Of a stretch of 64,000 nt of DNA, positions 4,064 to 14,969 are shown one piece after another. The first letter of the stretch is position 1. The number at the start of each line of letters is the position of its first letter. A program made the position numbers and the translations under genes. Under the pieces are notes generated by a model. The model had not been told where the DNA came from. It made no database searches and saw only the letters and a list, made by a program, of their open reading frames with translations. Where the stretch lies: the NCBI GenBank assembly GCA_963674745.2, contig CAXXDV010000001.1, forward strand, positions 1,728,001 through 1,792,000. Direction: 5' to 3'. Origin of the DNA: Desulfosudaceae bacterium. GTDB lineage: Bacteria > Desulfobacterota > Desulfobacteria > Desulfobacterales > Desulfosudaceae.

Positions 4064-4476
4064 GTTGACAAATTATACAAACCATCCTCTCAAGTACTCC
4101 TTCCAAAATGGATAAATGTTGGAGAAAATAATTAGAACAGGTAAATAGGAAATAAAACGATGCCAAGAGGAGCATGACTGGATGCGCCGGGCACATTGCA
4201 TCATGTCATGGTGCGTCGGATCGAGAGGCGCAAAATTATCGACGATAGAGCTCGTTTTATCTCAAGGGCCGGGGAAATTGCACTGTACACCGACAATTCG
4301 GAAGCCGCCGGCACCCGATGCCGGATTTAAGAAAAAGGCTTGCCTGGGAGTTTGTTGGGGACTATGACGTTTCGCTTGCACAGGCCGCTCGCTATCTGGG
4401 CCTGTCAACTTCCGGAGTCGCCCAGATATTGAGGAGAAATAAACATTAGTTTGTATGTTTTGTTAACAACGTTTCC
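4064..4476 (+). pseudogene. internally deleted Y1/HUH (RAYT/IS200-like) transposase remnant with imperfect terminal inverted repeats
   Basis: From ATG at 4160 reads MPRGA*LDAPGTLHHVMVRRIERRKIIDD (typical N-terminus, with a stop). The 3' piece reads LRKRLAWEFVGDYDVSLAQAARYLGLSTSGVAQILRRNKH* (HTH-like). IRs: GTTGACAAATTATACAAAC (4064-4082) and GTTTGTATGTTTTGTTAAC (4449-4467), 16/19 match. Confidence 0.7.
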
Positions 4477-4505
4477 AACAACCCTGTTAAAAAAAGGATT
4501 CTTCA

Positions 4506-4988
4506 ATGTCAGAAAATAAATCTCAAGTTACCAAAGCCTTCCAGTCCTGGGTTATCACCTTTTCAGTCTTATTCTTCGCTCTGTCAGGGACAGTTTTAGC
4601 CCTTGTATGTATATACGCATTACCAGATAAGACAGTACGTCCTTTTTTAGGCGGTTTGATTTTTTGTGGAGGCTCTTTTGTCTTAATCGCACTTCTGATT
4701 ATCCATTGGAAAAAAGATATCGCCATACTTCCAAACAATCAAATCATGGTTAAAGAAAATCTGTCCGATAAAATCCTTAAGTGGATTACAACTCTTTTTT
4801 GTTTTGGTTTTTCGTTTTGGGGACTCGCTATAGCGCTTATTTGTATTTATGCTCTGCCAGACAAGACCTTTCAACCTAAAACAGGGGCTATTTATTTTTT
4901 GGGAAGTGCTTTTGTCATAGCAAGCCTTGTTTTTGTAGTATGGAAAAACTGGAAAACAAAAATAGGGTGTCATAGCGTGAAAGAATAA
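4506..4988 (+). CDS. hypothetical four-TM membrane protein with internal duplication
   Basis: Two homologous halves, each containing ALxCIYALPDKT. Confidence 0.7.
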   Translation: MSENKSQVTKAFQSWVITFSVLFFALSGTVLALVCIYALPDKTVRPFLGGLIFCGGSFVLIALLIIHWKKDIAILPNNQIMVKENLSDKILKWITTLFCFGFSFWGLAIALICIYALPDKTFQPKTGAIYFLGSAFVIASLVFVVWKNWKTKIGCHSVKE

Positions 4989-8650: not shown

Positions 8651-8686
8651 AAACTCAATATATAATAGCCATAATATATTGAGTTT
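8651..8686. repeat. 14-8-14 palindromic site, left copy
   Basis: AAACTCAATATATA-ATAGCCAT-AATATATTGAGTTT; arms are 13/14 complementary. Confidence 0.7.
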
Positions 8687-9397: not shown

Positions 9398-9522
9398 ACC
9401 TAACAACGCCACTCACACAGACTCGCAGGGGCGGCCTGCCTTAGTCTTGGCATAGTGTGGTGTTGAAATAACATTTAGCGAAGTCCGCAAACCCTGCTCG
9501 CCGGTGGTGGCGGACGTTAGGT
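9398..9522 (+). repeat. attC site 1
   Basis: ACCTAAC-AACGCCACTCAC...GCAGGG...CCCTGC...GTGGTGGCGGAC-GTTAGGT. Confidence 0.9.
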
Positions 9523-9981: not shown

Positions 9982-10335
9982 ATGGATATAATCTTTGAAG
10001 CGAAAAAAGTATCCTATAATGAAGCCTTAGGTGGAGATATTGTCCAGATTTCATTTGACCAAGATGATCATGATGACATCCTTGAAAATCCGTATAAATA
10101 CCTTCTTATCTCTATCAATTATGAATTCCCTCCATTTGAGCCATCATTTGAGTGGTATGACGGCACTGAGTATGATGGCGGTGATGAAATCAAAAATTAT
10201 TCTTTTCAGCCTGATCATTTAATGATGCAATTGGAAAACGATTTGGTTTTTGATATTTCTTTTAAAATCGAAAAACCTCTTTTCGAAAAAATAGATCAAT
10301 TTTTTAAAAAGGTATTTAAAAGATTAAACACATAA
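9982..10335 (+). CDS. cassette 3 hypothetical acidic protein
   Basis: 117 aa, AAGG RBS, stop within the attC R'' box. Confidence 0.75.
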   Translation: MDIIFEAKKVSYNEALGGDIVQISFDQDDHDDILENPYKYLLISINYEFPPFEPSFEWYDGTEYDGGDEIKNYSFQPDHLMMQLENDLVFDISFKIEKPLFEKIDQFFKKVFKRLNT

Positions 10336-10390
10336 CGAACAAGGATAGATCGTGCGAGGTAACGAGCCACGATCTTATCCGGGGTTGAAC
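10330..10390 (+). repeat. attC site 3 (short 61 bp type)
   Basis: ACATAAC...GGATAGATCGTG/CACGATCTTATCC stem with one unpaired base...GTTGAAC. Confidence 0.75.
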
Positions 10391-10584
10391 AAGCCCGCTG
10401 AACTTTCACTATAAGAAAATATTTAATTTGGGATAGAGGGCAAAAGGCGTGAACCTGGAAAGTGCTTTTTTTGCAGGGCGCAGGGATCCCTTAACCTGAA
10501 GGCAGGTTTTAAAAAGACAATTTTGTTCATGGGTGTGATTGCCTCCTGTTTTTTGTTGTGCCGGGTCATAACCGGGGCAGCGTT

Positions 10585-11640
10585 TTATCCCGGCTTCCAG
10601 GCCGCGTAACGGAACCCTTTGATGACCATCGGGATGTGGCAACGGGGGCACTTTACAGCAGGTCTCGGGCGTTGGATCTTTATTCCTAGCCGGACATGCA
10701 GGATCAATTGCACCAGTTGCAACGTCTTTTTGGCGTTGCCGTGGAGGAACCCGTAATCACGTACCCTGCGGAAGCCCTTGGGCAGGACATGCTGCAGAAT
10801 AAGCTGGAGAAAATTTTCTCCGTCAAGCGTGCGATAACGGGTATGGCCGGTGTTGCTTTCCGTGTATCGGAAGGTGACCCGGCCATTTTCATTGGCCACG
10901 ATGTTCTTTTCACTGATGACGCCCCGGTATAAGTACCGGGACAGGTACTTTATGGCCGGGAGCCCGTTACCGACCTTTTCACAATCCACGACCCATTTTG
11001 CAGGTGTATTTTTAGGCACATAAAGGCCGGCTTTTCTTAAAGCGGCCAGAAAACGGGCACGAAAGACCGTGGCCAGGTTAAACTCATTAAACAGATATTT
11101 TCCTTTTTTCTTTTTCCATTGTCGCCGGCGCTTATCAATCCCGCCGCCGGGCACCACCACATGGATATGAGGATGATAATCCAGACTTCGGGTGTTCGTA
11201 TGCAGAACCATGGTCAAACCGATTTCTGCGCCCATTTGCTTCGGGTTTAAGCCAAAATCCTTGAGTGTTTCGGACACACAGGAAAAGAAGATTGAATATA
11301 CATCCCGCTGATTGTTCCAGGCCAGCGGACGGAGTTCAAACGGCAGCGTAAACGTCGCCATAAAGTAAAGCACCGGAAGCAGTTTCTCCTGCTGCCGGTC
11401 GATCCACTGACTGGCCTCATGATTCTGGCATTTGGGGCAGCTCCGGTGCCCGCAGGACATTGGTTTCCATTGTCCATGTTGGCAGCCGGGGCACTGAACG
11501 TAAAATTCTCCGGAGGCAGGAGTGCGGCACCTGCGTATGGCACGCAAGGCTTTAAGATGCCCCGGCAAGGCTTTTTGGCCGTGCTTTTCCATAAACCTGT
11601 CAGCGTACTGATCAATAATTGATGCCAGTTCCATAATCAT
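10585..11640 (-). CDS. IS91-family rolling-circle (HUH, Y2) transposase with N-terminal zinc-binding domain
   Basis: CRT...CPGC...[11 protein letters not shown] zinc motif; HPHIH (HUH); YLSRYLYR (YxxxY); [18 protein letters not shown]. Confidence 0.92.
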
Positions 11641-12541
11641 ACCTTTCTAAAATCAACATGGATTGTATTTATCAACTCATTTAAGACAGTCAGGCTGTCC
11701 TGCTCCGTTATATCGCTTAGATGCGTATAACGTGCTGTTGTGGAGGGACTGGCATGGCCAAGCAGGGCCTGGATGTGACGGAGGCTTAAGCCGCGTTCAA
11801 GCAGGTGGGTGGCAAAACTGTGACGCAGGGAGTGAATGGATACTTTTTTTTAATGCCGCATTCGGCGACGACCACTTTCATGGCTCTCTGACAGCCGCCT
11901 TTATCCATAAAGTTGGTGGCCGCCCGGATGGTTTCTAAAGAACCCTTGCAATTGGGGAATAACAAATTAGGATGACGATGCTTACGCCAAAGCTCCCGCA
12001 GGCCCTCCAACGTAAGATCCGGCAATGGCAGCATTCGGTCCTTATGACCTTTACCCCGGCGGATATGGACCTTTTTGCGTTCAGCATCAATGTCCCCGAT
12101 CTGAAGGGACAACGTCTCTTCCAGACGCAATCCCATGGAATAGGTTGTCAGCAGAAATACCCGGTAACGCAATTTCTTGGTTTTGCCGATGATCCGTTCA
12201 ACTTCGGAAACGGTAAGAATGTCCGGTATGGTTTTGACTTTCGGCGGTTTGACGATCTTGATCCATTCCCAGTCCTTTCCGAGCACATACCGCCAGAAGA
12301 ACTGCAAGCCGTTACGGTCAACCCTGACCGTGCTCCAGGAATGGCTATCCACCAGCTGAGAGAAATAACCTTCCAACTGTTCCGGACGCAAATGGTCGGG
12401 ACAACAATCAAAATGGTTACGAATGCGGCGGACTGAACGGGCATAGAGATCAATGGTCCTCGGACTCATCCCCTGAAGCTTGAGCAACTCCAGGTGCCGC
12501 TCATAAAGCCGGTTGAAACGTTTTACTTCCGAATCGTTCAT
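11637..12541 (-). CDS. tyrosine recombinase/integrase, split by a -1 frameshift at an A8 run
   Basis: 0-frame: SAM-like N-terminus, [18 protein letters not shown]. After ATT AAA AAA AAG (T-run 11844-11851) the -1 frame reads [43 protein letters not shown]...DFRKV*, and its TGA overlaps the transposase ATG (ATGA). Confidence 0.88.
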
Positions 12542-12628
12542 GGTATACTCCTTTTATTGGGGGTGCCCGTAATTGAGCACGTATTGGAGTATACCTTGTT
12601 TTTTATTAATCCGCCGCGTAGCGGCTTC

Positions 12629-12752
12629 GTTCAACAACGCCACTCACACTGACTCGCAGGGGCGGGCTGCTTTTTAATTATCGAAGTTCGGGGTTAACGT
12701 GGCTTTGCAAAAGTTACCATTCCCTGCTCGCCGGTGGTGGCGGACGTTATGT
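12629..12752 (+). repeat. attC site 4
   Basis: GTTCAAC-AACGCCACTCAC...GCAGGG...CCCTGC...GTGGTGGCGGAC-GTTATGT. Confidence 0.9.
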
Positions 12753-13125: not shown

Positions 13126-13249
13126 ACATAACAACGCCACTCACACGGACTCGCAGGGGCGAGCTGCTTTTGTTTTGGCGTAATTTGGAGTTGAACTCAC
13201 TTTAGCGAAGTCCGCAAACCCTGCTCGCCGGTGGTGGCAGACGTTCGGA
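13126..13249 (+). repeat. attC site 5
   Basis: ACATAAC-AACGCCACTCAC...TTTAGCGAAGTCCGCAAACCCTGCTCGCCGGTGGTGGCAGAC-GTTCGGA; close relative of attC1. Confidence 0.9.
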
Positions 13250-14933: not shown

Positions 14934-14969
14934 AAACTCAATATATTATTGTACATATCTATTGGGTTC
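14934..14969. repeat. 14-8-14 palindromic site, right (degenerate) copy
   Basis: AAACTCAATATATT-ATTGTACA-TATCTATTGGGTTC; homologous to 8651-8686 including the trailing TTCGA. Confidence 0.6.

Follow-up and report, generated by a model that had tools for sequence, protein, structure and literature searches.

We describe here a tyrosine recombinase gene that appears to be expressed by recoding, found in a window of 64,000 nt (the whole stretch of DNA analysed; contig CAXXDV010000001.1, positions 1,728,001 to 1,792,000) from the Desulfosudaceae bacterium assembly GCA_963674745.2. The gene belongs to a mobile element of about 2.3 kb on the minus strand (10331..12635), whose boundaries were taken from four genomic copies and which also carries an IS91-family (HUH, Y2) transposase gene. 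The 0-frame open reading frame (ORF) of the recombinase (11786..12541, minus strand) encodes 251 residues: an N-terminal SAM-like domain, most of a catalytic domain and a 19-residue out-of-frame tail. The tail begins at a run of eight A residues (A8, 11851..11844) closed by a G (11843), where the minus strand reads GGC ATT AAA AAA AAG TAT, so that a slippery heptamer A_AAA_AAG (11849..11843) stands in phase with the 0 frame. Past the run, the 0 frame specifies 19 unrelated residues up to a TAA (11788..11786), which in the -1 frame is made of the Leu codon TTA and the A of the next Ser codon. The -1 frame runs on for 68 codons plus a stop (11637..11843) and it alone contains the C-terminal catalytic motifs, HSLRH (HxxR), LLGH and ARY with the tyrosine. 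An earlier note on this DNA had described a 0 frame ending without HxxR, LLGH and Tyr, with these motifs in the -1 frame after ATT AAA AAA AAG and a -1-frame stop overlapping the transposase start; this description is correct for the minus strand. The -1-frame TGA (11639..11637) overlaps, as ATGA, the first ATG (11640..11638) of a 351-aa transposase ORF (10585..11640, minus strand), and a Shine-Dalgarno-like AGAAAGG (11642..11648) lies in the last recombinase codons upstream of that start. Runs of eight A are in themselves ordinary in this DNA (18 in the window versus 15.1 expected), and the beyond-chance feature is therefore the conservation and frame context of this one in its relatives.

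The two pieces of the recombinase gene encode parts of one protein domain. The 0-frame ORF matches PF13495 (Phage_int_SAM_4) over residues 12-92 and PF00589 (Phage_integrase) over residues 109-231, covering positions 3-124 of the 172 of the latter profile, and the -1 piece matches positions 128-169 of the same profile. With scores of 52.0 bits for the 0-frame ORF and 55.9 bits for the -1 piece against a cut-off of 27.1, each half is recognized as tyrosine recombinase, and the two are thus colinear halves of one domain. They are also colinear with the solved single-chain recombinases 4a8e, 5hxy, IntI4 (2a3v) and XerD (1a0p), the -1 piece aligning to residues 225-266 of 4a8e (XerC-like) and to residues 264-313 of 2a3v, and the segments GLRLEE and GKGHKDR, candidates for the sites of the N-terminal catalytic Arg (box I) and the beta-hairpin Lys, are invariant across alignment A2. 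The protein is not an integron integrase by TIGR02249, on which its N part scores 89.7 bits and its C part 52.6 bits against a cut-off of 265, versus 415-429 bits for the true IntI genes of the genome. The transposase ORF scores 387 bits on NF033538 (IS91 family transposase; cut-off 125) and also matches PF04986 and PF14319. The element behaves as a multicopy insertion sequence (IS), with four copies that have identical ends in different flanks. Public databases name the 251-aa proteins plainly "integrase" or treat them as complete "tyrosine-type recombinase/integrase".

The four genomic copies are 96-100% identical and all of them carry the A8 run together with intact ORFs of 251, 68 and 351 aa. 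Compared with the window copy, the N parts of the others differ by 36 synonymous and 3 non-synonymous changes, and the C parts, read in the -1 frame, by 7 synonymous and no non-synonymous changes. In one copy (L004), three of the five changed C-part codons would be non-synonymous if they were read in the 0 frame.

The same break was seen well beyond this genome. A protein search covered 5.8 billion proteins (JGI, ENA, Logan, NCBI), and we took the best 120 matches, which are 70-98% identical to the query. HxLRH was in frame in none of these 120; 100 of them are exactly 251 aa long, and 116 end in C[GSR][IF]KK[KR] followed by a variable tail. The one match of 300 aa that ends in the catalytic frame (P0111) was considered as a candidate in-frame allele and rejected, for it retains the KKK break and regains the frame by a second indel that deletes HSLRH. 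At the DNA level we compared 94 loci, namely the window, the three other genomic copies, 10 loci from species genomes and 80 metagenome loci, the last being the best 80 of 549 confirmed relatives and coming from many projects and environments. The catalytic end is in the -1 frame with its motifs kept in 88 of the 94. One locus, whose tract is one A short (L016), has it in the +1 frame; two distant ones (L018 at 51% identity, L020 at 41%) are in frame without an A-run; and three were missed by the motif pattern. Among these three, L081 keeps the run and the -1 relation and has an internal deletion of the HSLRH-LLGH region, and L021 and L022 are distant relatives that by translation are in frame at the site. 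The motif pattern also missed L114-L117, which have open frames of 303-387 aa. The earlier note had proposed that homologs be aligned to see if the break is conserved, and had held that uniformly in-frame close homologs would speak against recoding; the alignment came out the opposite way.

The run itself is present in 89 loci and is at least eight A long in all of them (A8 in 67, A9 in 21, A10 in one). By context these are 64 of type ATT-A8-G, 12 of type ATA-A8-G, nine of type ATT-A9-T or ATC-A9-T, and one each of A10-T, A8-C, A8-T (L016) and CT-A8-G (L017). The differences in run length are neutral for the frame because the extra A's substitute for neighbouring T or G.

Codon usage around the run points to selection on the slip site and on both frames. 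Variability was computed on 76 unique segments (from 85), in which the A8 core has an entropy of 0. Upstream of the run, position 3 of the 0-frame codons is the most variable (1.1-1.3 bits versus 0.4-0.6 for the other two), and downstream it is position 3 of the -1-frame codons (1.0-1.3 bits versus 0.05-0.7). The most variable codon position thus changes at A8, so that the frame under purifying selection switches at the run. In the 80 unique main-clade loci the first two Lys codons of the site are always AAA, compared with 593 AAG among the 1831 Lys codons elsewhere in these genes, and the third is AAG in 69, AAA in 10 and AAC in one; an in-phase heptamer of the X_XXY_YYZ form is therefore found throughout, as A_AAA_AAG, A_AAA_AAA and A_AAA_AAC, respectively. 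The 0-frame stop occupies one and the same codon position in 78 of the 80 (TAA in 57, TGA in 21). The Leu codon that forms it, in the sequence E-R-G-L-S, is TTA in 56 loci, CTG in 13, TTG in eight and CTA in three, and never CTT or CTC, versus 429 CTY among the 815 other C-part Leu codons; this skewed choice argues that the stop is held in place. The codon and stop counts are phylogenetically non-independent across loci, their direction being unambiguous. Taken as comparative evidence, these patterns indicate maintenance of the early 0-frame stop as well as of the slip site and of the two coding frames.

The junction with the transposase gene is conserved as well. From the His onwards the -1 ORF is 65 codons long in 75 of 77 loci. 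In 69 of the 77 unique loci the recombinase stop is followed by two bases and then an ATG, six have a one-base overlap with the ATG and two have other arrangements; a Shine-Dalgarno-like tetramer lies within 14 nt before the recombinase stop in 75 of them. The counterpart of this conserved start in the window is the ATG at 11634..11632, two bases past the recombinase stop. An ATGA overlap also occurs in an in-frame relative from an E. coli plasmid, so that coupling would be a trait of the family, and the frameshift would decide which ribosomes reach the junction. An additional effect of the shift on translation of the transposase is suggested by the conservation of the early stop and of the stop-ATG junction.

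More distant relatives do without the break. In a library of 50% representatives the frameshifted clade falls into a single 251-aa cluster, and the next relatives (45-53% identity) are in-frame proteins of 300-308 aa, their alignment to the query stopping at the slip site, near residue 233. The sequence of in-frame relatives (45-57% identity) is GI-x-K-x-x-S/T-x-H, with seven residues between Gly and His, and the -1 fused product restores this spacing exactly. The clade was not found among plasmid matches (393 records, all below 60% identity), of which the six best, at 52-57% identity, each align as one piece and hence are in frame. In some clusters of lower identity, G[ILF]KK is followed by a tail that is out of frame.

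A quick tree of 40 N-terminal parts, in which 19 of 37 inner branches were unresolved, contains a main frameshifted clade of 14 rows (SH-aLRT 98), a second frameshifted clade of four rows (SH-aLRT 99) and an additional frameshifted row next to an in-frame one. It requires at least two to three changes of state; from these sequences, the two frameshifted clades may have had a single origin. DNA for the second clade was sought in 401 genomes and matched in 15; no claim made here is based on the unpublished genome G142. Three of its loci (L108, L110 and L124) read xxA AAA AAA AGA, with an A8 run, and one (L111) reads TTA AAA AAA GAA, with A7. All four need a -1 shift, and the in-phase heptamer is A_AAA_AAA, one base out of register compared with the main clade. 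A 64%-identical relative (L112) is in frame despite an A7 run.

From this comparison we consider it highly probable that this IS91-family element expresses its recombinase gene through programmed -1 recoding, with the conserved A-run as the site, as the earlier note had suggested for A_AAA_AAG: this -1 shift is required in 88 of 94 loci, the run does not vary and the frame under selection changes there. Standard decoding would give the 251-aa protein, with a DNA-binding (core-binding) domain at its N terminus and a portion of the catalytic one; as it would have neither the HxxR, nor the second His, nor the tyrosine nucleophile, it is predicted to be unable to cut DNA. A minority of ribosomes shifting to -1 at A_AAA_AAG would make a full-length recombinase of 300 aa, and one A inserted by RNA polymerase on A8 would yield the identical protein. 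The shift is probably infrequent and the active recombinase rationed, because no conserved stimulator was seen. Shifted ribosomes alone would terminate two bases ahead of the transposase ATG, and unshifted ones would stop 146 nt upstream at the conserved stop, so that translation of the transposase may depend in part on the shift. As for the short form, it may compete for recombination sites, or organise them. Rationing, a truncated DNA-binding form and coupling to the transposase, all raised in the earlier note, would fit the conserved stop and the anatomy of a stop followed by an ATG with its Shine-Dalgarno-like sequence (75 of 77).

Several points weigh against programmed recoding, or against the ribosome as its agent. 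The support for recoding is comparative throughout. Over the 125 nt downstream of the site, RNAalifold found no conserved structure in 71 sequences (-2.83 kcal/mol, 6 pairs, none covarying), and the RNA fold of the window is no better than that of shuffled sequences (z = +0.41). A Shine-Dalgarno-like stimulator upstream was not noticed on inspection by eye. The output may then be very low, or there may be an unseen stimulator. Tracts of A8 to A10 fit slippage by the polymerase as well, and the conserved phase does not discriminate, because every phase of A8 gives a valid heptamer; the G that closes the run also encodes Val against Ile in the fused protein. Decayed copies coexist with the intact ones: besides L016, P0111 and L081 with the lesions given above, L118 has an in-frame stop in its C-part. 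The metagenome contigs are consensus sequences, in which minority run lengths are hidden. Finally, the in-frame relatives function without the device, which is hence not essential to this type of element.

As for the machine that slips, tandem slippage of Lys-tRNAs on the ribosome is the one we prefer, with modest confidence, because a G ends the run at 69 of the 80 loci and one locus works with A7; this preference over the polymerase is a lean and not a result. The best heptamers work at about 0.3% in E. coli when stimulators are absent, A_AAA_AAG being among the best bacterial ones, and, according to the same study, bacterial ribosomes shift more readily on AAG in the A site (Sharma 2014, PMC4066793). 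The IS1 heptamer A_AAA_AAC is given as a proven case of -1 ribosomal frameshifting without an established stimulator (PMC4066793). Programmed transcriptional slippage, in which RNA polymerase would add one A on A8 and so put the messenger RNA in frame, is a variant of recoding with the same two isoforms; we regard it as possible, though the less probable course. It would account for a main-clade run that is never shorter than eight, for a first Lys codon that is invariably AAA though only its last base is within the heptamer, and for the missing RNA stimulator, and tracts described as "An, n > 7" are slippage-prone for the polymerase (Antonov 2013, PMC3711429). Slippage of this kind would favour a longer A run, and the run is mostly closed by G instead of being lengthened; L111 of the second clade works with A7, the in-frame L112 tolerates such a run, and A9-A10 tracts are the ones at work in the known programmed cases that Antonov 2013 cites (PMC3711429).

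The remaining explanations dispense with recoding. If the 251-aa protein were the sole product, or if the C-terminal 68 aa were made from an internal start and the pieces assembled, the public annotation as a complete integrase would be right and the 0-frame stop would be under selection, as it is. Such a view is very unlikely in light of the strong purifying selection on the -1 frame and its intact catalytic motifs. A split protein would also have to start within a frame that is closed by a TAA just before the run (in the window and in all ATT variants); inspection of the alignment, not counted by script, showed no conserved start codon, be it ATG, GTG or TTG, in the stretch from the run to HSLRH (a GTG in L025 only), and no Shine-Dalgarno sequence was noticed there by eye, again with no script count. 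We give still less credence to DNA-level phase variation, with the tract as a contingency locus at which gain or loss in replication would toggle the recombinase between ON and OFF states in subpopulations. Such a view has in its favour the mutability of homopolymers, the A lost by L016 and the spread of run lengths from 8 to 10, but the run-length differences are all frame-neutral and the ON frame was found in 0 of the 89 A-run loci and 0 of the 120 proteins, when a phase-variable gene is expected in both states. Least credible is the view that a homopolymer was misread in sequencing, or that the element is dying and was recently inactivated by a deletion. Either would classically leave a homopolymer broken by a single base, and the earlier note had deemed them equally possible; this part of it does not hold. 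The identical break recurs in four diverged genomic copies and in the 80 metagenome loci, and error and recent inactivation are both rejected, since 0 of the 120 best proteins are in frame, 88 of 94 loci are in -1, the run is invariant, selection in both frames switches at it and the 0-frame stop is conserved. The pattern at synonymous sites argues against a systematic undercall of A9 shared by all public assemblies, as do the A9-T and A10-T variants, whose frames are related in the same way.

The element lies in an integron cassette array, recognizable in the window by small ORFs and by attC sites of about 120 nt (9398-9521, 12629-12751 and 13126-13248, all on the plus strand). Three integron integrases of the genome exceed the TIGR02249 cut-off, and its attC-like repeats, in several clusters, number in the dozens; two of the four copies of the element (L002 and L004) are 14-15 kb from an integrase. 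An attC-like sequence abuts the recombinase-side end in 4 of 4 copies. In the window this is the host attC at 12629..12751 (plus strand; repeat families D2 and D3), the insertion target, whose first core box is replaced by the end of the element. The element starts with GTTGAAC (12635..12629, minus strand), the same left end as in the E. coli plasmid relative, and its right end (10398..10331, minus strand) consists of GTTCAAC, an imperfect hairpin and CCTTGTTCG, followed by TTA (TTATG at the junction). These ends are compatible with recombination at G|TT between the element and the first core box of the host attC, the element pointing the opposite way from the cassettes. Elements of the IS91 family are defined by rolling-circle ori and ter ends and a GTTC/CTTG target. 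The right end here holds CTTGTTC and a hairpin, and the junctions are equally consistent with a site-specific exchange at G|TT.

Some further observations concern the ends and their surroundings. The element has an attC-like site of its own, with GTTCAAC, an imperfect hairpin with an extra base and, upon circularisation, G|TTGAAC. A metagenome contig (L028:74-87) has the right end joined to the left, CTTGTTCG being directly followed by TTGAAC, the junction that a circular or tandem form should have. The 57%-identical in-frame relative on an E. coli IncC plasmid (NZ_LT985243.1; L103:2234-2460, 4473-4745) is likewise inserted at an attC, that of aadA1, between aadA1 and qacEdelta1. On the other side of the element in the window, a cassette ORF of 117 aa (9982..10335) has its stop (10333-10335) within the split attC core box at 10331-10336 (ACATAAC, plus strand), so that the insertion cuts the ORF off from the attC that belongs to it. 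The cassette region is flanked by two copies, 74% alike and 6.3 kb apart (8651-8685 and 14934-14968), of an AT-rich palindromic sequence of 35 nt. An IS91-like element, ISShvi3, adjoins attC in a Shewanella study (PMC9229058). From its insertion sites the family looks attC-targeting or cassette-mimicking, through either the recombinase or the HUH transposase.

Programmed frameshifting is textbook knowledge for the DDE transposases of IS1 and IS3. The site described here resembles those of the IS1 and IS3 families (IS911, IS3, IS150; OrfA/OrfAB) in its A-rich heptamer, A_AAA_AAG in IS911 and IS3 and A_AAA_AAC in IS1 (PMC4066793), and, as in those families, the short upstream product would keep the DNA-binding part, the rare transframe product would be the active enzyme and the 0-frame stop follows soon after the site. 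It differs in that the gene codes for a tyrosine recombinase, accessory in this HUH (IS91) element, instead of a DDE transposase, and in that the break is inside the catalytic domain and not between two domains. Moreover, IS911 has frameshift stimulators (PMC5009743), whereas a stimulatory pseudoknot or stem-loop was not detected here, and the shifted frame runs up to where a second enzyme gene starts. The dnaX gene shares the slippery sequence, and with it the question of whether ribosome or polymerase slips at A tracts, A_AAA_AAG being ribosomal in E. coli and A9 transcriptional in Thermus (PMC3711429). There the shift truncates the protein, at an efficiency of about 50% aided by a Shine-Dalgarno sequence and a hairpin; here it would complete the protein, and no stimulator was seen.

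The in-frame IS91 elements that carry a recombinase, those of the E. coli IncC plasmid NZ_LT985243.1 and of the ISShvi3 type, share with this one the two-gene layout, the GTTGAAC left end, the overlap of stop and ATG, the insertion beside or in attC and 52-57% protein identity, but their recombinases are read in one frame and have ECNIHKAISPHSLRH at the site, without the A-run. A recombinase-carrying IS91 subgroup is listed in ISfinder. IntI (2a3v) and the Xer proteins (1a0p, 4a8e, 5hxy) are the best-scoring curated family and the solved relatives with which both halves align, and the element appears to recombine at a G|TT core as IntI does; the recombinase nevertheless remains far below the IntI cut-off. 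No published frameshift in a tyrosine recombinase or in the IS91 family was found in the full-text literature, a search that left ISfinder and TnPedia outside and included part of the review PMC5009743. The part searched of the Antonov 2013 supplement (PMC3711429) gave 0 matches for an integrase cluster, and its cluster tables may still list one. On this comparative basis the conserved recoding site is, in our judgement, real, and would join the programmed frameshifts of insertion sequences in a gene type and an IS family for which we found no described case.

A larger picture can be drawn, which we offer as a doubtful conjecture: a widespread, cassette-mimicking IS91 family would invade attC sites upside-down, recoding would yield an abundant, dead DNA-binding isoform and a rare active one, and the recoding ribosomes alone would reach the start of the rolling-circle transposase. 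One run would then balance two mobility chemistries, by a device that arose or was kept in at least two clades.

The finding matters for how these genes are read, since hundreds of database entries treat the 251-aa ORF as a complete integrase or the gene as broken. The family concerned occupies attC sites of integrons, one of them attC(aadA1) in a class 1 integron of clinical origin. Recoding would give a handle on the role of the extra recombinase in IS91 elements and could separate the roles of its short and long forms.

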